64,000 bases of DNA from assembly GCA_011364925.1 (NCBI GenBank), contig RDOA01000002.1, positions 129,044 through 193,043 on the forward strand, in the 5' to 3' direction. The notes under the pieces are model-generated. The model ran no database searches. It worked only from the letters and a program-made list of their open reading frames with translations, and was not told where the DNA came from. Origin of the DNA: Promethearchaeota archaeon. GTDB lineage: Archaea; Asgardarchaeota; Lokiarchaeia; Sigyniarchaeales; SOKP01. Shown here piece after piece: positions 6,040 to 51,098 of the stretch. Positions within the stretch are counted from its first letter, which is position 1. Each line of letters begins with the position of its first letter. Position numbers and translations under genes: made by a program.

Positions 6040-7041
6040 TTAATTAAATCCTTTTTTTATTGTCGTTTTATGGAGTTTATCATAGCTTAATGTACTAAAA
6101 GGACATACTTTTACACAAATAGTACAACCATAGTTCTGAACAAAATATGGAAAGCATATCTCACCATCAATATGTGTGATTAAACCATTTTTCTGTTGAA
6201 TTGCCTGCTCTTTTATAGCTAAAGGTGGGCATTTTTTAATGCAAATTCCGCACGTTGCGCAATAATCCTTAATCCAACTATGGGAGTTTTTAGAATGATA
6301 AGGTAGATTTGCTATATTAGTAAATACAGCAGCTAATCTTACTCTTGGTCCAAATTCAGGTGTAATCAATAATCCGTGCCTGCCAAACCAACCTAACCCA
6401 GCATCTTTCGCTAATGGAGGGTATAATACAATTCCCCCTAAAGGATGGGAGGCTTGAGCGGCGTATCCATTTTTTCGCAAATATGCAGCAATTTTATTTG
6501 CTGCTATTCCAAGTTTGTTGTAGGTTTGCATTATCATTTTCACTGTCTTTCTATGAGGTGCTAAAGCAATTCTATCTTTATCCATCTCCATAACCAATAC
6601 GATAGCATTTTCAAAAAGGACTGCTTTATTCTTGAATATCAGATGTCGAGGTAATTTAGAAAATCCAATAGAAGCTAAACCTTGGTCCATACAAAATTCT
6701 TTCAGGTTCTCCAGAAAAACATCATCAATCTCAACTTTTTTTCTATTTTCGTTTTTTTTTAAACTATCAATTGATTTATTTATATTCCTAACATTGGAAA
6801 GCATAGGGAGTATAGTTGAACGATTCATTAGATTGTTTTTATTACCCCTCTCTGCAAAATCGATAATATGCAAGGGAATGTCAAATCGAACTGGAGATAA
6901 ATTATTTGCTGTGATTACCCCAGCTTTTTCAGTTAATGCTTCCTCTTTTCGATAGATTTTCTCTATAGAGGGCTTCATGAATCTTCTATAGAATATCTTT
7001 TTAATTCTTACTCCTAGCTTCATAGAACATAACCCTATCAA
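6040..7041 (-). CDS. Reductive dehalogenase/QueG-like cobalamin and 2x[4Fe-4S] protein
   Basis: AGLGWFGRHGLLITPEFGPRVRL, CxxCxxCxxxCP and CxxCxxVCP; start uncertain. Confidence 0.75.
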   Translation of the reverse strand: MIGLCSMKLGVRIKKIFYRRFMKPSIEKIYRKEEALTEKAGVITANNLSPVRFDIPLHIIDFAERGNKNNLMNRSTILPMLSNVRNINKSIDSLKKNENRKKVEIDDVFLENLKEFCMDQGLASIGFSKLPRHLIFKNKAVLFENAIVLVMEMDKDRIALAPHRKTVKMIMQTYNKLGIAANKIAAYLRKNGYAAQASHPLGGIVLYPPLAKDAGLGWFGRHGLLITPEFGPRVRLAAVFTNIANLPYHSKNSHSWIKDYCATCGICIKKCPPLAIKEQAIQQKNGLITHIDGEICFPYFVQNYGCTICVKVCPFSTLSYDKLHKTTIKKGFN

Positions 7042-11444: not shown

Positions 11445-11887
11445 ATTAGATCCGGACTTAGTTCGTAACTTTTTAAGACATTTTTAGCTTTCACAATATC
11501 ATCTATTTCCGAAGAAAATGTCTTAAATTGAGAAAAATTCCCATTAAAATCGACCAATTCTTTTTTATACTTAGTTAAAAACTTTTCAAAAACTTCCATA
11601 GCAATAGTGTCAATTATTTTTCTCTTCTGCTTCTTATTATCCACTTTACTATCGCATTTAAAGATGAGGTGAAGATGAGAGTTCGGCTCAGTATAAAAAT
11701 AAAAAACGCTTTTATTCATTTTTAAAGTATTTAAACTCTCGTTAAAACCGTATTTCGTAAAGCGACAAATTTGATCGAAATAGCTCGCAATCACCTGATA
11801 GTTCCGTTCAGTTATGGAATTACCTCGGAAATTGTGAAAGAATATTGGTACACCCTTGTTATTAAGAATAATAATCTCTTGGATCAA
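11441..11887 (-). CDS. Longin-domain protein (Asgard eukaryotic-signature type)
   Basis: IQEIIILNNKGVPIFFHNF N-terminal beta pair, FxxKY...F..F...ID C-terminal helices; 148 aa. Confidence 0.65.
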   Translation of the reverse strand: MIQEIIILNNKGVPIFFHNFRGNSITERNYQVIASYFDQICRFTKYGFNESLNTLKMNKSVFYFYTEPNSHLHLIFKCDSKVDNKKQKRKIIDTIAMEVFEKFLTKYKKELVDFNGNFSQFKTFSSEIDDIVKAKNVLKSYELSPDLI

Positions 11888-12033
11888 TTTGTATCCAAAA
11901 ATTATATTTACTTGTGGCTATATAAATCTTCGCTATAACAATATTGAAGAGTTTGAATTAATTAACATACCTATTAATAGGGTAATAATTGACGAATTTA
12001 CTAATGAATAAGTATAGTGTATGAATACATTCA

Positions 12034-18443: not shown

Positions 18444-20093
18444 TTATTTTGGTAGTTCTCCTTCCTTTTTATCCAGTATTTTGCCTTTCATTACTGGCTC
18501 TTTTGTCGGAGAACCTTTTAAAAACTTGTCCGTTTTCTTTAATTCTGTGTTGTAATTCTTGTCGAACGAAGCTCTCTGACCAACGATACCAACACTAGGA
18601 GTCTTAGCACTAGATAGCGTTTTTCTATACTTCCTCACCTTTCTTACAGGGACAGGATATTTCAGATAGGCTTGATACGCGATGAGATAAGCGCCTAAAA
18701 CTGTAGCCCCAATTACTGCAATGATGAATAAACCCACAAATAACCAGTTTTCTTCTACAGGCACCGGGATAATTTCAGTCCAAGAAATGAATAGATTCAC
18801 ATTGGTTATCGAGATCGTTATATTGTTGCTTAATCCAAAATCTTCTGCTAAATATACCTGAATTGAAAGTGTAAAGTTCTCATAAGGTATCATTATTTCT
18901 GTAATGTCAAACCCTCCAGATCTCGCTTCTGTAAAATCGGTATCATAGACATAGTTTATGAGGTATAAAGCAGGATCAAAAACTCTATCGTTAATTTTTA
19001 TTAAAAATCTAGAATTCTGGGACGCATCTGTCCAACTCTGATCCATTTTATACTCAAAAGTAAGGTTAGCTTTGGTGATTTGAACATTAGAACCTTTTAC
19101 TTCCTCTAAATCCTGAGCCCATGAACCAGAAGTGAATTGATTTATCTTTTTCTCGTAAGTAAATGTTAGATTAAGAGATTTAAATCGTAAATCATTCCAG
19201 TAATCGCGGTCTGTACTAGATAAATTATCTTCACAATAAATATATATTCCTAAGATAATCGTAAAATTGTTATGACCGGGATCTAGGGCTAACACATTGT
19301 TTATAGCGTCAATTATTGCTTGGTTTCCAAAGGTTCCAATGTTTCCTTCGATATCGTAAAGAGGTAGAGTATCGCTTCCTAAATATACCGTTTTATTTTT
19401 AGCAATTGGGTAGAGGCTTAATTCATTAACATCTAAATCAGAAATATAAACATAAAATGTAACAGAATCAAATTCTTGATATTGATCTATACTTGCTTGA
19501 CTGGGGCTCCATCTCGCATAAGTATCACCTTCCACATCGATGTTTCTGTCTACACTGGCGTTAATTACTGCGTTAAAAGAAACGGAAGTAATGTTATAAT
19601 CGCTCATGTCTACCGGCATACTAACATTTGTTCTCCAATGCATCTCGGGTGTGTTTTTTGGTTGTCCACCAGATTCTCCTTCCCACCACCAGTGACTACA
19701 CCACGCTCCATTATCATCGATTCCATAATATGGAACAGAAGCGCGTTGAGGCACAACCTCCGACGGATCCAATATGTATTCGTTCCAATTTGATTGAGTT
19801 GCGCTATTAAGAAGAACTTCTTTTGTTCGTGTGTCTCCAATTATTTTTATATTTGCTTGATTCAAGCTTGTAGACGCTTCTACATCTGATTGATCTCCTG
19901 CTAAAATCGTATATGGATCTGATTTTGGGTGGTTCTCAATCCAAGGTTCATTTGTGTGTGTTTGAACTTTCGTTGCAGACGGCTTAATTGTTACTGCTTT
20001 TTCGCTAACGGCATTTTTTGGTGTTACTATGAATGGCAACATTAGCAAGGCGACAAGCGTTATTATCAAATAAATGGTATGCGTTTTCTTCAT
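18444..20093 (-). CDS. Cell-surface protein with Loki-CTERM-type anchor
   Basis: Probable start MKKTHT at 20093 (track starts 20144); signal-like segment, shared CED domain, TM then YLKYPVPVRKVRKYRKTL. Confidence 0.82.
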   Translation of the reverse strand: MKKTHTIYLIITLVALLMLPFIVTPKNAVSEKAVTIKPSATKVQTHTNEPWIENHPKSDPYTILAGDQSDVEASTSLNQANIKIIGDTRTKEVLLNSATQSNWNEYILDPSEVVPQRASVPYYGIDDNGAWCSHWWWEGESGGQPKNTPEMHWRTNVSMPVDMSDYNITSVSFNAVINASVDRNIDVEGDTYARWSPSQASIDQYQEFDSVTFYVYISDLDVNELSLYPIAKNKTVYLGSDTLPLYDIEGNIGTFGNQAIIDAINNVLALDPGHNNFTIILGIYIYCEDNLSSTDRDYWNDLRFKSLNLTFTYEKKINQFTSGSWAQDLEEVKGSNVQITKANLTFEYKMDQSWTDASQNSRFLIKINDRVFDPALYLINYVYDTDFTEARSGGFDITEIMIPYENFTLSIQVYLAEDFGLSNNITISITNVNLFISWTEIIPVPVEENWLFVGLFIIAVIGATVLGAYLIAYQAYLKYPVPVRKVRKYRKTLSSAKTPSVGIVGQRASFDKNYNTELKKTDKFLKGSPTKEPVMKGKILDKKEGELPK

Positions 20094-32243: not shown

Positions 32244-33956
32244 TTAATGAAGGAAAGAGGATAATAGTCCCAGAAAGCCTTGGTATGGTGCAAATGTACA
32301 TACTACCATTACAACTAGTATCGCAGAAATTAATGTACCCGCAATAATATTCCCCGTTTTCTTATATGTATAGACTGAAATTCCTGCAACAAGTAAATTA
32401 AGAGGTATCGCAATCGGCATCATTACTCCAAAATAGAAAAAGTTGCCCACAAATACCCCGATTAAAAAGAGATAAAATGCTATATAGGCTAAAAGAACCC
32501 CGAAGTGGATAAGAATTGCTTTTAATGTGCTGTTTTTTGTTCCTAGAATTTTAGAATAAATAACAAATTGGAAGAGAATACCAAAAACTAAGAACATAAG
32601 AAAGGTTATTACAAAATAGATTGCAACAACCCACGCTTTCGAAATAGATGGGATCATTCCTACATAATTTAATCCTAGTGAGGAATATAAAATCAGATAT
32701 AGTAGTGTAATTATTATAAAACCATATATAATTGATTTTCCGATGTTCAATTTTGAACTTTTGAAGGGGGTTTTTAGTATACTTAATAGAGATTTGTCAT
32801 TCTTTTTGCCTAGCCTCCAAAGTTGAATTAATATTCCAAACACTTGACCGAAAAGCAGACTGAGAACAAATCCAGTTATAGCCAATGGAATAGGAAGAAA
32901 TATCCAAATAATTATAAATACTCCTAATAATCCTAATGGAATTGAATATAATAATGATTCAATGGCTATTTTATTAGCAGACATCTCTCTGATTTCAACT
33001 TGTAATTTTTCTTCGGTTTCTCTACTATTAAATTTCATAAGTTTTGAAATGGGGTTAAGTAACATAATAAACAATCCTATTCCTCCAAACACTTGGATTA
33101 CTAAAATGAATAACCTAAGGTTTCCATAAAAATTCTCATCTGGAGTATTTGTGTCTGGAAATGTGTTTATTATCCAATCGCGTGCTTGTCTGGTAAAATC
33201 AACGTCCCATGCAACTGCTAAATGATTACTATTATCGTCTAAATATATTTTTGTCGCGTTTCCTGTCTCGAATGATCCATACATTTGATTAGAATCTATT
33301 AAAGAGGTACTTAATCCCGTTCTTTCTGCTACTGAAGCTTTTAAATGATCTAAATCTTGGACTTCATCAAAATTTGCTTTAATCATAAGTACATTCAAGG
33401 GATTGGTGGAAGTACCCCTACGAATATTACCTAAACTGGTCCCAACCCCAATAAACGCTTTAAAAGCAGTACTTTGGTTAACAATCATGTTCCCAGGACC
33501 TCCTCCCATACTATAGCCAATGTATGCAAGATTATTAGTATCGATGTCTGGGCGATCATTTAAATAATCAAGTATCGCTTCTACATCCTCAATTAGGTTT
33601 CCTCTTTCTAAACTCCCAGTACTCTGCCCATGTCCTCTAAAATCAAAAGGAATAGCTACAAAACCTGCAGCAGCTAATTCTACAGCATACCCCTTCATCA
33701 TTTCCTTATTTGCCATAAATCCATGTCCGATTATAACAGCTTTTTTATTTGATTCTTCGCTGGTTACTGGTTCAAAAACATTGAACGCAATTCTAATCCC
33801 ATCATCTGTTATAGTTGTAAGACCATATGTACTTTTCACCGAAAATGGTACAGTAAATATCAAGACTGTCCCAGTTATATAAATTGCCAGAAAACTGATG
33901 ATTAAAATTGATTGTTTTTTTGATAGATTTATTCTATTCATGAATATTATCTTCAT
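32244..33956 (-). CDS. Membrane-bound alpha/beta hydrolase
   Basis: HGF, DFRGHGQS, GYSMGG nucleophile elbow; multi-TM C-terminal half. Confidence 0.82.
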   Translation of the reverse strand: MKIIFMNRINLSKKQSILIISFLAIYITGTVLIFTVPFSVKSTYGLTTITDDGIRIAFNVFEPVTSEESNKKAVIIGHGFMANKEMMKGYAVELAAAGFVAIPFDFRGHGQSTGSLERGNLIEDVEAILDYLNDRPDIDTNNLAYIGYSMGGGPGNMIVNQSTAFKAFIGVGTSLGNIRRGTSTNPLNVLMIKANFDEVQDLDHLKASVAERTGLSTSLIDSNQMYGSFETGNATKIYLDDNSNHLAVAWDVDFTRQARDWIINTFPDTNTPDENFYGNLRLFILVIQVFGGIGLFIMLLNPISKLMKFNSRETEEKLQVEIREMSANKIAIESLLYSIPLGLLGVFIIIWIFLPIPLAITGFVLSLLFGQVFGILIQLWRLGKKNDKSLLSILKTPFKSSKLNIGKSIIYGFIIITLLYLILYSSLGLNYVGMIPSISKAWVVAIYFVITFLMFLVFGILFQFVIYSKILGTKNSTLKAILIHFGVLLAYIAFYLFLIGVFVGNFFYFGVMMPIAIPLNLLVAGISVYTYKKTGNIIAGTLISAILVVMVVCTFAPYQGFLGLLSSFLH

Positions 33957-42855: not shown

Positions 42856-44085
42856 GTGATTATTATGGAAAGTAAAGAAAAAATTGTACTCCAAAAGATT
42901 GACGAGATGCAGAAAGAGATTACCAGTTTTTTACAACAAATCGTCGAAATTCCGTCAGAAATTCCTCCCGGAAAATATCGATTAATCTCGAAATTCGTAG
43001 CCGAAAAAATGAAGGAGTTTGGAATAGAAAATAAAATCAAAAGAAACAATGTCATCGGTGAACTGGGTAAAGATGGGGGTAAAACATTAATTTTTAATGC
43101 TCACATGGATACGGTAGAAGTTTTCGACGGATGGACAAAAGATCCTTATTCCAATGAAATTATAAAAGGCAAAATTTATGGTAGAGGAGCATGTGACGAT
43201 AAATCCTCTGTTGTTGCTGAAGTATTTGCTGCCAAAGCCTTATTAGATGCTGGCGTAGAACTAAATGGAAAATTGATCGTAACAGCAGTTGTAAACGAAG
43301 AAATAGCTGGATTTGGGGGCGCTGAGTATATAGCTAATGATGGAATAGTAAAAGGTGATGCTTGTATCGTTGGAGACGGTCCTCCTGATTATCCAATGGG
43401 GTACATAGGGGGTACACTTCAATTAAGCTTTACTACAAAGGGAATTCGACGGCACACAATGGCTTATCCTGATTTAGACCCTCCAAACAGGAACGAATAT
43501 TCTGGAATTAACGCCGTCCACAGAATGTTTCCAATCATCGACTTTCTTAGAGACTTACAAGTGGAATTAGAACAACACGAGACACAATACCCTCTAGCTC
43601 CTGGTATGCCTTCTAAAGTTGGTTCCGTTACAATTACAAAGATTGATGGAGGTGTATCACATACTACTGTCCCAGATAACTGCAATTTGCATTGTATCAT
43701 TAGTGTTATACCTGAAATGGATTTGAAAGCCATTAAAACAAAAGTGTTGAAGTTTGCAAATGATTACAAAGAAAAAAACCCAGAGATAGAATTAAGCGTT
43801 CAAGCACCTGTTTTTGTAGAACCTTTAATTGCAGATCCTAATACGGAATTTGCTAAGAGCGTGAAAAAAGCGTATAAAACCCTCTATAACGAAGAAAGGG
43901 AATTTAAACTGTTTATCGCCTCAACCGATGCCCATCATTTTAAACGAAATGGAATAGACACTATTGTGATCGGAACTCTGCGAGGAGATAATAATTACCA
44001 CGCACAAGACGAGTTTGTATATATCGAAGACGTAATTAACGCAACTAAAATATATGCCCTTGCAGCTTTAGATTATCTGAAATAA
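42856..44085 (+). CDS. M20 family metallopeptidase (ArgE/DapE-like)
   Basis: NAHMDTV, GRGACDDK, NEE, STDA, HAQDE. Confidence 0.88.
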   Translation: MIIMESKEKIVLQKIDEMQKEITSFLQQIVEIPSEIPPGKYRLISKFVAEKMKEFGIENKIKRNNVIGELGKDGGKTLIFNAHMDTVEVFDGWTKDPYSNEIIKGKIYGRGACDDKSSVVAEVFAAKALLDAGVELNGKLIVTAVVNEEIAGFGGAEYIANDGIVKGDACIVGDGPPDYPMGYIGGTLQLSFTTKGIRRHTMAYPDLDPPNRNEYSGINAVHRMFPIIDFLRDLQVELEQHETQYPLAPGMPSKVGSVTITKIDGGVSHTTVPDNCNLHCIISVIPEMDLKAIKTKVLKFANDYKEKNPEIELSVQAPVFVEPLIADPNTEFAKSVKKAYKTLYNEEREFKLFIASTDAHHFKRNGIDTIVIGTLRGDNNYHAQDEFVYIEDVINATKIYALAALDYLK

Positions 44086-44775
44086 TTCATCTTCTATTTC
44101 TTTTTCTAACTTTTGCATGATACAAAAGACTGATTGGAAACTTTTTGGACTTGCCTTGACGATATCTACCTCATTTTGATGTATTTCTAATGCTTTAAGA
44201 GCAGCTTTATCGTTCGCGTATTTTTTTAACAGTTCTTGTAGTTTAATCTCCAGTGGTTTGTAGTATTCTTCCCACCAGGCGTTCTCTGGTAAAGAAAAGT
44301 GTTCAATAAAGTCATAACCCCATCGATTAACTTTGTCGCGATGCTTAAAGAAATGTTTAGTTTCGTCGTGTATCACCATAAAGCCTCTGGATTTAAGGAG
44401 TCTTTTCCATGTCCTCAAACTTTTCTCAACCCCCAATGTTGTCAAGGTACCCTCAGCCCATATAATGTCAAAACTGTTGTCTGGAAATTGAATATCTAAA
44501 AGATTACAATTAATAGCTTTCACTCTATTGGTTAAGCCAGCTTTTTCAATTTTTTTCTTTAATCTGTCTAAACTATCTTGATCAATGTCTATTCCTATTA
44601 TTTCACCATCGCTTAATTTTGCCAATTCCATAGTGGGAACACCCGAACCACAACCAATGTCTAAAATGCGTGGTTTATCCAAATTTGGCAACTTCTTAAA
44701 TGCTTGTATCGTATATTTGCTGAAGGCACTTCTAAACTGGTCTATATCTAACTCATTCAATATTGCTTCAGACAT
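44068..44775 (-). CDS. Class I SAM-dependent methyltransferase
   Basis: ILDIGCGSG, GIDID, SFDIIWAEG. Confidence 0.88.
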   Translation of the reverse strand: MSEAILNELDIDQFRSAFSKYTIQAFKKLPNLDKPRILDIGCGSGVPTMELAKLSDGEIIGIDIDQDSLDRLKKKIEKAGLTNRVKAINCNLLDIQFPDNSFDIIWAEGTLTTLGVEKSLRTWKRLLKSRGFMVIHDETKHFFKHRDKVNRWGYDFIEHFSLPENAWWEEYYKPLEIKLQELLKKYANDKAALKALEIHQNEVDIVKASPKSFQSVFCIMQKLEKEIEDELFQII

Positions 44776-44878
44776 TAATCTTCAACCTATTGCTATTATA
44801 AGTAAGCTACTCATTTAAATGTCGAGGATAGAAGAGAAAAGAAAATTAAAACATCCTCACTAAGATTATTCAAGAAGG

Positions 44879-45340
44879 TTAAGAACTAAGTTTTTCTTTT
44901 AAACCGGTGAGAGCATTCAACCACGCCTTTTCAAAATAGTTGCGAGCTTCATGCCAATCACGATCTTCTCTCCAACCAGTATGGAACAAATAAAGTAGTG
45001 TTTTTTTCGGATCCTTAGCGCTTGGAGTAAAAACGATAACTACATGCGTCAAGGGATCACAGAAATTCATAAAAGACTGATACATCTCTGGTCCTTTCCA
45101 TTCAAAGGATAGAAATTTATCTTTTTCAATGCTGGTAATCTTACAACCTAATGTACTATTAATTTCTGGATTCTGAGGTGACCAAAATAGTTCGTATTTT
45201 CCCCCAACTTTAGGTTCAACGTCAGCTTTCTCAGGTAGCCATGATTCTAATTTCTCGTTCACAGTAAATAAATCATAAGCCTGACTAACTGTACAATTTA
45301 ATTCGATCTCAATTTGTATTATGTTTTGCATTACAGACAC
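44879..45340 (-). CDS. SRPBCC/AHSA1-like domain protein
   Basis: LESW..., PKVGGKY, LSFEW, HTGW, terminal AWxxAL helix. Confidence 0.82.
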   Translation of the reverse strand: MSVMQNIIQIEIELNCTVSQAYDLFTVNEKLESWLPEKADVEPKVGGKYELFWSPQNPEINSTLGCKITSIEKDKFLSFEWKGPEMYQSFMNFCDPLTHVVIVFTPSAKDPKKTLLYLFHTGWREDRDWHEARNYFEKAWLNALTGLKEKLSS

Positions 45341-45400
45341 TTTAAAATATTGTTAATAGATGTTTTAATATAAAATAAGATAAAAATAATTATAAAATTT

Positions 45401-46168
45401 TTAAATCTCCTCGCCAGACTCCTTACCGAGTAAGCGTATAACGGAATCTGCAAGTTTGTTTTGACTTCGGCTCATTATTCCCTTGATTTTCCCTTCTCTT
45501 CCAAGAACTCGGAGCATGATACCGTTCCAAACTGAAGATGGATTTCCCTTTTCTCTTTTAAATCGGTCTCTATGAATATCTACGCTAATATTCTTGTAAT
45601 TCTTAGACGCATCTGAACACTTAAAACATAAGATACATTTATCAATGTCTACAGCTATGTCATTGCCGTCTCGTGACATAGCATCTACGGCGCATTCTTT
45701 AGTAAACGCGTCAATTACTTTAGTGTCTTTCTCAGTACAATTGAACTTAATCGAACCATCTACTACTTTCCGAACTTTCTGACCGTTTTCTAATGTGCGA
45801 ACTTCTTCTTCGAATTCTGCGAGTGAACCATTCTCTACTAATAAAATCTTGGGCTCGCCATTAATTAATAATTCAAGCGTATATCCTGGACATATCCACG
45901 AACAACTTCCACACCAAATGCATTTATCGGTATCGACAACAATTTTTTTATCCGATTCAATCCCCATTTCTTCTGGTTTTCCAATAGCCGTCTTTTTTAA
46001 TGGCTCATCGTAAATAGATACAGTTACAGGGCAAACTCTATGGCAAAAGCCGCATTCTACGCATTTACTTTCATCGTATTTCAGGATGCTCTCATGAGAT
46101 AGCATTTTGTAAACATAATGAGTAATATTCTCATCAATTTCAATTGCTTTTTTAGCCGGTAATGACAT
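45401..46168 (-). CDS. Multi-[4Fe-4S] ferredoxin-like protein
   Basis: CVECGFCHRVCP, CIWCGSCSWICP and a degenerate CILCFKC. Confidence 0.8.
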   Translation of the reverse strand: MSLPAKKAIEIDENITHYVYKMLSHESILKYDESKCVECGFCHRVCPVTVSIYDEPLKKTAIGKPEEMGIESDKKIVVDTDKCIWCGSCSWICPGYTLELLINGEPKILLVENGSLAEFEEEVRTLENGQKVRKVVDGSIKFNCTEKDTKVIDAFTKECAVDAMSRDGNDIAVDIDKCILCFKCSDASKNYKNISVDIHRDRFKREKGNPSSVWNGIMLRVLGREGKIKGIMSRSQNKLADSVIRLLGKESGEEI

Positions 46169-46256
46169 AATCCCTCACTTATATATTATTTCTTTAATTA
46201 AAATTATATTTTTGTATTTTTAAGAATTTATAAAAAATCTTTTTTCCGTAATCGAA

Positions 46257-47396
46257 TTATGTTTTTTCTAATTCCATTTGGCTAATCGCTTTACCAGACC
46301 TAAATGGTATATCATCAATACTTTCCCCAGAACTATATCCAAATTTTTCCTTGAAGGCGTCATTTAATGATTGAAAGTATAACGATAGAGGAAGATGTTG
46401 TGGGCAGTTGTTATCACAATTTCCGCATTCCACGCAACGATCGGCAACGTGAGCGATTCTTGTTAATTGATAAGATTCTTTGTTGATGATCTTTTCCTTT
46501 CTCTTCTTCATTAGGATACAGTCAACACAATAACATACAGGACAGCCACGAATGCACATGTTGCACATCGTACATTTCTGAAATTTATCGAGCTTTTCTT
46601 CTTGCGAAAGTTTGTCCCACTCTTCTAAATCTTTTGCTCTTTTTGCCAAAGCTGTATCTTTTATACCCTTAAGGACTTCTTGATATTTTACTTTCAGATC
46701 ATCAGGTAATGGTTTTTTATTGATTTTAGACTTCTCTACAAGCTCGGCGCCTTTATTCGAATAAATCTTTAGAACTATTTCGTCAGAATCAATAGGTAGA
46801 ACGAGATCACTTACAGCGATATCTGCTACAGCCGGAACCTTCCTATAGCATCGTGAACAGTTTTCTGCTATGTTCAATCCAACTTCTTTAGTGCTACCAT
46901 CTTCAAATTGAAGGATTAATCCATTATCACCGACTTTTTCCTTAACAATTTTAGTTAAATCGATGCCTTCTACTTTCTTTATCTCACGGGAAACATCTAC
47001 TACCATCCCTCTATCCTCAAATCCTACGATGAAGAGATTATCCATGTTAATCTGCCTAATCTTTGCTAGCTCAATTATCCCTCGAGCATCACAAGGACGA
47101 GCGATTATACCTACTTTCTCGTTTTTTGCCCCATCGACGGATTTATGTAAAAATTTTGCAGCAGTATCCGTTCGAGCGTATCCATATGCTATCAAATTAG
47201 TTAAAGGAAATGTAGCAAAATCTTCTGGCTTCTCAACAAGTACAGGAGAAACTGTAAACCGATCAACAGCCCCAGATTTCTTGTCTACCTTCAAGTTTGC
47301 TCCGATTACTTTATCAACGAATTTTTCTTGCAAAAGTGTAGCTAATAGTTTAGGAAAATCTTCAATTTTGATTAAATATTCATCTAATGCATCCAT
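46257..47396 (-). CDS. FdhB/FrhB-like (F420-interacting beta subunit family) Fe-S protein
   Basis: RPCDARGIIELAKIRQIN, CSRC...ADI, CTMCNMCIRGCPVCYC, CVECGNCDNNCP. Confidence 0.75.
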   Translation of the reverse strand: MDALDEYLIKIEDFPKLLATLLQEKFVDKVIGANLKVDKKSGAVDRFTVSPVLVEKPEDFATFPLTNLIAYGYARTDTAAKFLHKSVDGAKNEKVGIIARPCDARGIIELAKIRQINMDNLFIVGFEDRGMVVDVSREIKKVEGIDLTKIVKEKVGDNGLILQFEDGSTKEVGLNIAENCSRCYRKVPAVADIAVSDLVLPIDSDEIVLKIYSNKGAELVEKSKINKKPLPDDLKVKYQEVLKGIKDTALAKRAKDLEEWDKLSQEEKLDKFQKCTMCNMCIRGCPVCYCVDCILMKKRKEKIINKESYQLTRIAHVADRCVECGNCDNNCPQHLPLSLYFQSLNDAFKEKFGYSSGESIDDIPFRSGKAISQMELEKT

Positions 47397-47493
47397 GTTA
47401 TTCCAACTCTAATTTGTATTAATTTCTCTAAAATTTATTTTTAATTTTTTTACTTTCTTTCTCACATTACACTTATTTACTAAAATTTTATTT

Positions 47494-47566
47494 ATGTGTT
47501 CTATGGTGCTCCCATCTCTTCTGCTGAGTTCTCGTTTTTTTAACTCAGCGTCATCAGCAAACACAT
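47494..47566 (-). promoter_or_regulatory. Eukaryote-type SECIS element 3' of hdrA-mvhD
   Basis: Minus strand ATGTGTT-TGCTG-ATGAC-GCTGAGTT-AAAAAAACGAG-AACTCAGC-AGAA-...-AACACAT: outer helix, AUGA/GA core, perfect 8-bp upper stem, A-rich loop. Confidence 0.88.
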
Positions 47567-47574
47567 TTATTAAT

Positions 47575-48021
47575 TCAAGCTTTCGCTTTTTCTTTTTGTG
47601 TGCCACTTTTAGATTTTAATGGACTTGGTCCTAGTTCTCGTATGACTTTATCGAATTTTATGGCTTCTTGTTGAAACTTTTGGCCTTCTGCTGCTGTACA
47701 ATATCCAAACATTATCCGTTCTTCACTGAGTCCCATTGATTTTAGAACTTCTTTCATATACTCAACTTGTCTATACGCGGCGTAATTTCCCGTCTCGTAA
47801 TCGCATTCTTTTGGATATCATCCAATAATCATCACACCGTCAGCTCCTCTCCCAAACGATCGCATAACCGTATCCGGATCGACTCTACCCGTGCAAGGAA
47901 CTAAAACTACTCTAATTGATAGTGGGTATTGGGCTCTTATTGTTCCCGCCATATCAGCAGAGCCATATCCTCATTTCCAGCACAGAAACGCTATAATTTT
48001 AATTTCTTGTTCTTCTGTCAT
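47575..48021 (-). CDS. mvhD: Selenocysteine-containing hydrogenase delta subunit MvhD/VhuD (148 aa, Sec17 and Sec68)
   Basis: MTEEQEIKIIAFLCWKUGYGSADMAG...VPCTGRVD...GADGVMIIGUYPKECDY...; TGA at 47973-47971 and 47820-47818, in frame with the 60-aa track ORF. Confidence 0.93.
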
Positions 48022-48034
48022 GTTAATTACCTCT

Positions 48035-50011
48035 CTATTCCTCCATTGGAAGTAATGCATCGATTTGTGCTATATACTGATCGTCTCTAAAATATGTTAG
48101 TTCAATTGCTTTGGAGGGACACGTTGCTGTACAGGATCCACAACCGCGACATTTGATTATATCAACTTCTAAGTGGCCTTCGTTGTTTACAGAAATGGCA
48201 GAATACGGACATATTTCAATGCATTTATAACACTTTGCACATCTCTCGTCTATTGGAGTAGCTCGTATTAGTTCCATCGTATGTTCACCTCTACCCATCG
48301 GTATACTAGCAGCTGACGCAGCTCCTCTTGCTTGACTTACGGCTTTATCGATCTCTTTTTGTCCTTGAGCTGAACCCGCAATGTAAATTCCCATTGTTTT
48401 TGTACTGATCGGATCTAACCTAGCATGATATTCCTTTAAAAACCCATCGGGACTTTTCTCCATGTTAATAACCCTTGCAATTTCTACTGTTCCTTTAGAT
48501 GGAAGCGATGCCGGCGATAAAACTACCATCTCAAATTCCATTGTAACTACGGTATCGGTTCCAACAGGCTCAAATTGTACTGTTAAATTCTTTGTTAGTG
48601 GATCTTCTTGGATATCTCCAACTATTCCCTTAACAAAAATTATCCCCGCATTTCTTGAACGCCTATAGTATTCTTCGTAATCTTTTCCTGCGCATCTCAT
48701 ATCTATATAAGAACATAATATATCTGAATCAGGATACTCCGATTTTATTAATTTCGAGTTCTTTAGAGACAAATTGCAGCATATTACTGAACAGTGCGCG
48801 TTTTTCGTGACATCTCTACTCCCTACGCAATTGATAAATAATATTTTTTTTGGGCGTTTTCCATCAGATGGTCGTTTTAAGTGGCCATATGTAGGTCCGT
48901 TAGGAGCTAATATTCGTTCAAGCTGAATTTGATTGATTACATTATCGTAGGTTCCAAATCCATAATCTGGTCCTTCATAGATGTCCCACCCCGTTGCAAC
49001 TATTATTGTCCCAACTTCGAGATCTACATATTCATCTTGAATGCTAAAATCGATCGCGTCTTCTTCACACGAATCAACGCAAGCAAAACATTCTACACAG
49101 GTTTCTCGATTTATATCGTAAATAGCAGGAACTGCTTGGGCAAAGGCAATATCAATACATTTTCTCGCAGATAATCCTTCATCGAAGTAATTTGGAATGT
49201 AAATTGGACATACTTCAGTACAGGCTCCGCATCCCGTACATTTAGTTTCACTAACGAATCGGGATTTCCTTTTAACCTTAACCCTGAAATTACCAATATA
49301 CCCATCAACTTGGATGACTTCGGAGTAAGATAATATTTCAATATTTTTATGGCGGTTTGCTTCTAACATCTTCGGTCCGAGAATTCATATCGAACAGTCA
49401 TCTGTAGGAAAAGTTCTATCTAATTGACTCATTCTTCCACCGATCGTAGTGTTTTTCTCAACTAAATATACTTTAAATCCTTTGTCTCCTAAGTCAATTG
49501 CGGCTGATAATCCAGCAATTCCTCCACCAATTACGAGAGCTTCCTTTTTAACGGGAACTGTTTTCGTGGGTACATCTTCTAATAATCGCGCTCGTGCTAT
49601 TCCCGCGGTTATGAGCTCAATTGCTTTCTGAACGGCTTTTTCTCTGTCTTCTGGAGCTTGGTGGACAAAGCTACAATGTTCTCTGATGTTTACAAATTCT
49701 AAATATCTTGGAGGAATATTAGCTTCGCTAAGTATTGCGTGAAAGACGGGTTGATGCGTCTTTGGAGTGCACGCAGCTACAACGATTCTTTCGAGTTTAA
49801 ATTCTTCGATCTGTTCCTTTATGTATTCTGAACCTCCCTCGGTTCACATAGAAAGATATTCGTATGCTTTAACTCTATCTAATTTGTTTAATTCTTCAAC
49901 AATTCTAGGTACGTCTAGTATTCCAGCGATATTTATACCTCAGCGACACACAAATACACCAACAACTGATTTCTCAGTGTTTTCATCATCCTTGGTCTGA
50001 TTTCCAGACAA
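48035..50011 (-). CDS. hdrA: Selenocysteine-containing heterodisulfide reductase subunit A (658 aa, Sec24, Sec56, Sec209)
   Basis: TTG start after in-frame TAA; GVFVCRUGINI, YLSMUTEGG, VVAACTP, NIREHCSFVH, IGGGIAG, TFPTDDCSIUILGPKM; TGA at 49942-40, 49846-44, 49387-85, in frame with track ORF 48035..49369. Confidence 0.93.
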
Positions 50012-50294
50012 CCTTTACACCTTTGTATATATATCCTCCTAATAATTCAAGAGTCTATACTTCACTAATAGCTTCTTTATTATTTCTAATACATAATAAT
50101 TATGTTATGTAAAATAGTTCTTATTATTAAAATTCAATTATTATTAGTCTTAAATAGGAAAGTTTTGAGTTTGGAACTTTCTTCATTTAGGATTTATGTC
50201 GAAAATCCGATTTAGTATTAGATTAGATAAAAATTATAACTAATGATCGTATTTTTTACTCTTAAGTATAATATTTATTAATTGAGGATTATCT

Positions 50295-51098
50295 ATGCTA
50301 GAATCTCAACCTCAAACTGAAAAAAAAAAGAAATATAGAATCGACGAACTCCAAAGAAAAACATTAATTGGGAAGATTTATCCAATACTTTTAATTGGAT
50401 CGTTAATTTGGTTAGCAGGAGAACTCTTATTTAGCTATTTATTCTCAGATCTGGAATTAACAGGAATAAATTTAATTTATTATATTATTGTGGTAATAGT
50501 AGAAGTGAATTTATTTGTCACATTTTTCTTTACTTCCCGATATAATAAAACACTATTGAGCTTCTTAATTTTTATAGTACTGTCCTTTCTTTTGGGAATT
50601 TTAAGTTTACCCATAGTAATTTTCACACAATTTATTCCCCAACTTCACATGTTCGTAAGTCTCTCTGTGGGTGCAAATCTTATAGTTAACTTCATGACGC
50701 TCTTTTTAAGAGATAAATACTTCTCTAAAGGGTATATTTGGACGCATCTGTTATTGTTCTTGGTTGGTTGTGCAATAGTAGAACTTGTATTTATTTTTGT
50801 TTTTAATATCCATAACTTCTTGTTAACTATACCAATCTCCTTAGCGTATATTTTGATCGTTTCCATGATTTTGATCTTTTTTGGCGTTCGAATGGTTCAG
50901 CAAATTAAAGAAAATAATTGGATGTACGCCTTATTTAAAATTCTTGGGGTCATATTATTATCCCTTGCAGTAGCTGTTGTAATTGTTGTAATCGTACTTA
51001 TTGCGATCGCATGTATAATTGCCGGTGATAGTGCTGTAGATTTATCAGGTTTCGCTGGCGGTGGAGGACCCAGAAGAAAAAAGAAGAAACTACAGTAA
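50295..51098 (+). CDS. Hypothetical polytopic membrane protein (~7 TM)
   Basis: Highly hydrophobic with a basic C-terminus; weak resemblance to Bax-inhibitor-1/YccA topology. Confidence 0.6.
   Translation: MLESQPQTEKKKKYRIDELQRKTLIGKIYPILLIGSLIWLAGELLFSYLFSDLELTGINLIYYIIVVIVEVNLFVTFFFTSRYNKTLLSFLIFIVLSFLLGILSLPIVIFTQFIPQLHMFVSLSVGANLIVNFMTLFLRDKYFSKGYIWTHLLLFLVGCAIVELVFIFVFNIHNFLLTIPISLAYILIVSMILIFFGVRMVQQIKENNWMYALFKILGVILLSLAVAVVIVVIVLIAIACIIAGDSAVDLSGFAGGGGPRRKKKKLQ

Follow-up and report, generated by a model that had tools for sequence, protein, structure and literature searches.

The window, i.e. the whole stretch of 64,000 nucleotides analysed here, contains three consecutive genes on its minus strand, hdrA, vhuD and an fdhB/frhB-like gene, and a short RNA element located between the last two (Table 1). 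Three in-frame UGA codons of the selenocysteine (Sec) type are found in hdrA (49940-49942, 49844-49846 and 49385-49387) and two in vhuD (47971-47973 and 47818-47820). According to the translation, both in-frame codons of vhuD fall at conserved cysteine positions; the reading frame is closed by a third UGA (47575-47577). The element begins 8 nt past this stop codon, and the start of the fdhB-like gene lies 97 nt farther downstream, across an A/U-rich spacer. The AUGA motif of the element is separated by 266 to 2388 nt from the five Sec-type UGA codons and by 23 nt from the terminal UGA of vhuD. Within the window, the covariance model described below has one match only, at positions 47475-47575; a single element follows the hdrA-vhuD pair.

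Table 1. Genes and RNA features of the hdrA-vhuD locus (window coordinates) and elements of the same kind in the genome (contigs).
Feature	Position	Strand	Basis or remark
hdrA, predicted selenoprotein gene	48035..50011	-	658 codons; stop UAG; ends 13 nt upstream of vhuD
vhuD/mvhD (FlpD family), predicted selenoprotein gene	47575..48021	-	Pfam PF02662, E = 5e-43; 148 codons
fdhB/frhB-like gene	46257..47396	-	Pfam PF04432; context only
Whole element, very probable SECIS (lokiSECIS / Asgard eSECIS-like type I), three-way junction	47494..47566	-	MFE fold, RNAalifold, covariance model
P1, outer helix, 5' strand AUGUGUU	47560..47566	-	pairs with 47494-47500
P1, outer helix, 3' strand AACACAU	47494..47500	-	pairs with 47560-47566; basis as for the 5' strand
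Kink-turn C-stem, 5' strand	47556..47557	-	C47557 (-2b) with G47518; U47556 (-1b) with A47519
3-nt bulge G-A-U (L1-L3)	47553..47555	-	A-U shared with the start of AUGA; read from sequence
AUGA	47551..47554	-	sequence
Second half of AUGA (GA), 5' side of the tandem sheared G.A/A.G	47551..47552	-	presumed pairing geometry
GA behind P2, 3' side of the SECIS core	47520..47521	-	sequence
P2, upper stem, 5' strand	47542..47550	-	C47550 (3b) and GCUGAGUU (47549-47542); 8 perfect pairs
P2, upper stem, 3' strand	47522..47530	-	AACUCAGC (47530-47523) and A47522 (3n)
Apical loop AAAAAAACGAG	47531..47541	-	11 nt, A-run, AG end; sequence
P3, side hairpin	47503..47515	-	AUGG 47515-47512, loop GAGCA 47511-47507, CCAU 47506-47503
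Elements behind vhuD, four copies	contigs C38, C5, C112 (twice)
Element behind vhuU	contig C67
Element behind prx-like gene (prxL)	contig C39
Elements behind adjacent-UU proteins, two genes	contigs C32, C39
Element behind small GGGU ORF	contig C41
Element behind hdrA-like 3' end	contig C98
Element behind tiny CxxC ORF	contig C24

Read on the minus strand from 47566 to 47494, the element has the sequence AUGUGUU-UG-CU-G-AUGA-C-GCUGAGUU-AAAAAAACGAG-AACUCAGC-A-GA-AG-AG-AUGG-GAGCA-CCAU-AG-AACACAU. The unconstrained minimum free energy (MFE) fold consists exactly of an outer helix (P1), an upper stem (P2) and a side hairpin (P3), with an energy of -20.3 kcal/mol (z = -3.8). Of 200 dinucleotide shuffles of the element, not one folded equally well. 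The upper stem is A/U-rich toward its top, and at its base C47550 faces A47522 without pairing. P1, P2 and P3 are also what RNAalifold predicts from the 16 closest orthologues after plain alignment with MAFFT. The earlier note on this DNA, made from the sequence alone, had described an outer helix, an AUGA/GA core, a perfect stem with its loop and an AUGG-GAGCA-CCAU hairpin; all of these are located on the minus strand where it had placed them, and both folding methods return the same three helices.

Homologues of vhuD were detected in 40 of 41 related genomes, the present genome (G000) being counted in. The 30 vhuD loci taken from relatives contain for the majority two in-frame TGA codons, and for a few of them only one. 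A simple scan recovered the AUGA-stem-loop-GA core downstream of 24 of these 30 loci, with stem sequences that differ and a complementarity that is kept, and a covariance model picks up several of the remaining loci. Among the 16 orthologues aligned for RNAalifold, both partners have changed in six pairs of P2, a number that was reached by none of 500 shuffles. The 5' strand of P1 is near-invariant among these orthologues, and conservation falls off directly past its 3' strand. The loss of AUGA/GA and of stem pairing at orthologous loci that keep their UGA codons had been named as the observation that would speak against a SECIS; both are kept, with compensatory changes.

A wider sample was assembled from 60 short stretches located downstream of the vhuD paralogues of relatives and of the other selenoprotein genes of this genome. 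Those with a recognisable core represent 53 distinct elements, which cover vhuD paralogues, vhuU, prxL and other selenoprotein genes. AUGA is invariant (53/53), while the core dinucleotide on the 3' side is GA in 50 elements and AA in three. The first base of the bulge (L1) is A in 32 elements, G in 19 and U in two, and L2-L3 are always AU. Position -1b.-1n is occupied by a standard pair in all 53 elements (GC 37, UA 12, AU 3, UG 1), and position 3b.3n by a standard pair in just 24. The apical loop measures 11 nt in 43 of the 53 elements, starts with AAAAA or GAAAA in 41 and ends with AG in 44.

The covariance model was built on an alignment of 57 rows. In this alignment, 95.4% of cells are paired, compared with 53.5% after shuffling of columns and 35-40% in slid controls, values to be read with the knowledge that the alignment was fitted to the model's own structure, which favours pairing, and that the relatives are not mutually independent. 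By helix, the percentages are 94.6% for P1, 84.6% for the two-pair C-stem, 97.9% for P2 and 97.3% for P3. Changes on both sides were observed for all 21 pairs of the structure (P1 7/7, P2 8/8 and P3 4/4 among them). Alignment A3, with several false rows, was left out of all counts, and alignment A4 includes two or three doubtful rows (L044 +, L093 + and perhaps L055). Model R1, derived from the 16 closest orthologues, was too sequence-specific: with default filters its only matches were its training group and a single genomic site, and it was usable with filters off only.

The side hairpin P3 is present in all 53 parsed elements, with a stem of 4-8 bp that starts 0-6 nt past the core GA; the outer helix and a C-stem of 1-2 bp after the GA are likewise found in 53/53. 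The P3 stem of the window, AUGG/CCAU, is replaced elsewhere by AACCAU/AUGGUU, CCUU/AAGG, AUCCU/AGGAU, CCCC/GGGG or AACUCA/UGAGUU. The region of the P3 loop contains the motif GC[A/G/U] in 44 of 53 elements where 22 are expected, the highest count among 200 shuffles being 29. The 28 nt on the 3' side of the GA fold at -5.16 kcal/mol, compared with -2.41 for shuffled sequences and -0.90 for stretches located farther downstream. Without any alignment, MFE folding gave a three-way junction for 42 of the 53 real elements and, once the flanks had been shuffled, for 19 of 53 on average, a high background; these alignment-free tests have moderate discriminating power only, since flanks rich in A/U fold readily. 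A pairing of the GCA of the P3 loop with UGC in the 5' part of the junction was considered and rejected, being confined to the subtype of the window and absent from the others.

With its strands CU-GAU-GA and GA-AG, the core corresponds to a kink-turn at the level of sequence and covariation, and the whole element thus reads as a canonical kink-turn inside a three-way junction. Because the element follows the canonical kink-turn pattern, the "9-bp stem" of the literature is made up of 8 pairs and the 3b.3n position.

These features are those of an already published type of element. Mariotti 2016 described in Lokiarchaeota a structure located just after selenoprotein genes, with AUGA ahead of a 9-bp stem and GA behind it, and with an apical loop of 11 nt of which the first five are mostly A and the last is an ultraconserved G, usually after A (PMC4989117). 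In that work, a single element after vhuD serves the hdrA-vhuD tandem with a reach of about 2 kb, the stop codon of hdrA is always UAA or UAG whereas a UGA stop is allowed in vhuD, and eukaryotic models yield no matches in Loki (PMC4989117). Huang 2024 extended the description to more than 400 Asgard genomes under the names "eSECIS-like type I/II", with an upper stem of 7-15 bp, at most two mismatches and a loop of 8-20 nt (PMC11227280). The present element has AUGA immediately 5' and GA immediately 3' of its upper stem, nine stem positions (8 pairs and the basal C.A) and a loop of 11 nt, AAAAAAACGAG, with an A-rich start and an AG end, and it is the single element just past the vhuD of an hdrA-vhuD tandem. 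Covariance search of Rfam over positions 44000-51000, with E values up to 10, gave no SECIS family and only chance matches to mir-1991 and SCARNA18. We consider it very probable that the element is the SECIS (lokiSECIS / Asgard eSECIS-like type I) of a bicistronic hdrA-vhuD unit in a Lokiarchaeon.

The first interpretation, a eukaryote-type SECIS with AUGA...GA and an A-rich loop behind a selenoprotein gene, is consequently right in substance and fits the published lokiSECIS; it is not new, since this type was published in 2016 and extended in 2024. The short upper stem, which the earlier note had taken as possibly specific to the lineage, is a general trait of the published lokiSECIS. The papers of 2016, 2022, 2024, 2025 and 2026 make no mention of a side hairpin or a three-way junction in their main text, as distinct from figures and supplementary tables. 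The new point is accordingly modest and its novelty is rated with caution: the "extra" side hairpin is a conserved and covarying part of these SECIS.

Elements of the same architecture are found behind several other genes of this genome (Table 1). Over the 3.9 Mb of the genome, 17 sites fit the strict core pattern; in shuffled genomes the number is two or three. The covariance model of 57 rows gave 10 strong matches, two of them outside the training set, and all of the eight matches whose upstream ORFs were read lie behind genes with in-frame UGA. The pattern scan adds one or two elements missed by the model, one behind the second of the proteins with adjacent Sec codons (UU) and the other behind a vhuD copy. 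These UU proteins are two homologues of about 180 amino acids, encoded on contigs C32 (~33400-33570) and C39 (~19290-19800), and are candidates for non-classical selenoproteins, as is a hydrophobic ORF of 66 codons with GGGU on contig C41 (~11750-11950), which is followed by the same type of SECIS. One of the matches outside the training set (56 bits; contig C24, 22088-22185, plus strand) sits about 45 nt past an ORF of 39 codons with two CxxC pairs that ends on UGA immediately followed by UAA, and represents either the SECIS of a C-terminal Sec or an orphan SECIS. A match of 72 bits on contig C98 (482-582, plus strand) lies right after an apparent hdrA-type C-terminal ferredoxin domain with no vhuD between; it lies at a contig start and its context is incomplete. 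The UGA contained in AUGA is itself in frame as the stop codon of vhuD on C5 (~1120) and C112 (~75619) and of vhuU on C67 (~20460), so that coding sequence and SECIS overlap at the 3' end of the gene. Such an overlap has been published for VhuU.1, and in this genome it is seen for vhuD too.

Concerning the distribution outside this genome, all 25 genomes examined within the same family gave model matches, 2 to 12 each. Weaker matches were detected in two other Asgard families, where P1, the C-stem, P2 and P3 with GCA/GCG loops are alike. The phylum-wide model search with strict filters retrieved neither of the two genomes of family f2 (0/2), though the vhuD loci of f2 show the architecture by eye, and the distribution beyond family f1 is thus under-estimated. 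The earlier note had also suggested that the side hairpin might be lineage-specific. Since P3 is found across all 53 elements with compensatory changes, behind selenoprotein genes of other families in this genome, and in matches from two further Asgard families, this suggestion is not supported. As a tentative proposal, in which our confidence is somewhat less than even, the Asgard SECIS would be a three-way junction composed of a canonical kink-turn with a minimal, covarying C-stem, an outer helix and an obligatory 3' side hairpin with a loop enriched in GCA/GCR, common to all selenoprotein families of this genome and to several Asgard families, the hairpin being a functional module that was lost toward the eukaryotic SECIS. 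In such a structure the very short C-stem may be extended by stacking of P3, which would give the kink-turn a full-length arm and stabilise the kink, or P3 could be a recognition site at which an archaeal SECIS-binding factor or the ribosome would dock.

The position of the element between two genes allows another reading, in which it would be a kink-turn element in the leader of the fdhB-like gene and would regulate this gene, for instance through translational control by L7Ae, instead of or besides acting as a SECIS. The element is on the same strand as the fdhB-like ATG and 97 nt upstream of it, the order vhuD-element-fdhB-like is kept in all 16 loci that have the SECIS subtype of the window, and regulation by L7Ae through kink-turns in archaeal leaders is cited in PMC11881835. 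In these 16 loci the sequence from the element to the ATG drifts freely except for one conserved block, GAGUUGGA, which in the window is located at 47403-47410 (minus strand), 6 nt ahead of the fdhB-like ATG. This block is probably the ribosome-binding site of the fdhB-like gene, and its conservation at this place suggests that translation begins at a leadered start or an internal one. Synteny and this motif are compatible with a transcript that would run from vhuD through the element into the fdhB-like gene, as the earlier note had suggested. A leader element is nevertheless very unlikely: the same architecture stands behind vhuU, prxL, the UU proteins and other vhuD copies with an unrelated downstream gene or no co-oriented one, in 13 of the 14 more distant vhuD loci the hdrA-vhuD pair is kept and the fdhB-like gene is missing (it is present in one), and the spacer from element to ATG is not conserved. 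Still less credible is a generic hairpin at the 3' end of the mRNA, a stabiliser or terminator without recoding role whose likeness to AUGA/GA would be coincidental, for although a stop codon comes right before the element and a stretch rich in A/U, with UUUU, behind it, AUGA is invariant in 53/53 elements while the stems vary freely, the length and A-run of the apical loop are fixed, the matches of the model go together with genes that contain in-frame UGA, and the strict core pattern is found 17 times vs about three in shuffled genomes.

At four of the loci (L013-L016, in relatives G002, G009, G020 and G016), the vhuD protein shares only about 60% identity with that of the window, whereas the SECIS differs very little and the FdhB-like protein encoded downstream reaches 75-90% identity. 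This contrast suggests mosaic evolution or recombination inside the operon.

Under the SECIS reading, the hdrA-vhuD mRNA would bear the element in a 3' untranslated stretch directly after vhuD, and the element would mark the five upstream in-frame UGA codons for Sec-tRNA(Sec) brought by an archaeal SelB. The terminal UGA of vhuD, at 23 nt, would be too close to be recoded and would serve as stop. Sec insertion at these codons is a prediction, consistent with the retention of UGA at cysteine positions and with the presence of the Sec machinery. The genome encodes SepSecS (473 bits, above the cut-off), a SelB-type factor (230 bits; contig C64) and two selD genes with one in-frame TGA each. A candidate tRNA-Sec adjoins the SepSecS gene; read by eye, it shows a peak of G+C, a UCA anticodon in the anticodon loop CUUCAAA and an acceptor stem of 9 bp (GGCCCCCGG). 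This candidate (contig C64, ~6531-6680, plus strand) seems to hold two insertions, one after the anticodon at the canonical 37/38 place and the other in the T-loop; the literature reports for the tRNA-Sec of Lokiarchaeota a single intron of 31 nt in the T-arm. No tRNA-Sec was called by ARAGORN with or without introns, by the Rfam tRNA-Sec model or by regular expressions for the anticodon arm.

The AUGA/GA core would kink and be bound by a protein, which may be L7Ae, L30e or another factor, and the A-rich loop may contact SelB or the ribosome, or help to recruit SelB with Sec-tRNA(Sec). Two genes only of the L7Ae fold (PF01248) are present in the genome, with the NCBIfam names L7Ae (contig C54) and L30e (contig C28); the PF01248 search of this genome returned no additional SBP2-like paralogue. 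SBP2 is absent from archaea according to the literature (PMC4989117, PMC11881835), and Mariotti 2016, who expected a kink-turn and whose search for SBP2 failed, considered L30 or another protein as candidate binder (PMC4989117). An archaeal SelB failed to bind its cognate SECIS, and a Loki SECIS alone was inactive with a bla reporter in Methanococcus maripaludis (PMC11881835), the latter result counting against the SECIS reading; a Loki-specific partner is therefore expected. The element itself confirms the published work, in which Lokiarchaeia decode UGA as Sec with a eukaryote-like signal common to hdrA and vhuD. If true, the refinement proposed here could bear on the question of which factor recognises the archaeal SECIS: a textbook kink-turn and, next to it, a conserved side hairpin with its favoured loop motif would be two separable targets for binding, each of which can be mutated. 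The picture of a three-way junction would also clarify the changes that separate Asgard and eukaryotic SECIS.

Compared with the lokiSECIS / eSECIS-like type I, the core of the element is identical, and the multi-Sec hdrA and the pattern of stop codons are alike. Below the core, the published type has an internal loop and a lower stem without conserved nucleotides, or is left undescribed, whereas here the C-stem, the side hairpin and the outer helix covary. The SECIS of Methanococcales and Methanopyrus (GAA_A) is associated with the same gene, vhuD, at the same 3' UTR position as the Loki element. The GAA_A bulge with consecutive G-C pairs that characterizes it (eaSECIS) is absent from the fold of the element, in agreement with the initial distinction between this element and the methanococcal GAA/A type. 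One methanococcal vhuD subtype displays AUGA...GAC and a short extra stem; AUGA with GAC/AAC recurs in most Loki elements as AUGA...GA-C. With the canonical kink-turn (Kt-7, box C/D type), the element shares a Watson-Crick C-stem with a covarying -1b.-1n pair, a 3-nt bulge, GA on both strands and a variable 3b.3n position ahead of a regular helix; its C-stem differs in that it is only 1-3 bp long and opens into the three-way junction. Eukaryotic SECIS of type I are bound by SBP2 and eEFSec. They share with the element AUGA...GA, for which a kink-turn is expected, the unpaired A of the apical loop, the location in the 3' UTR and a reach of kilobases. The upper stem of the Loki elements is shorter than theirs (PMC4989117), and in place of two helices flanking an internal loop the present elements form a three-way junction with a 3' side hairpin.
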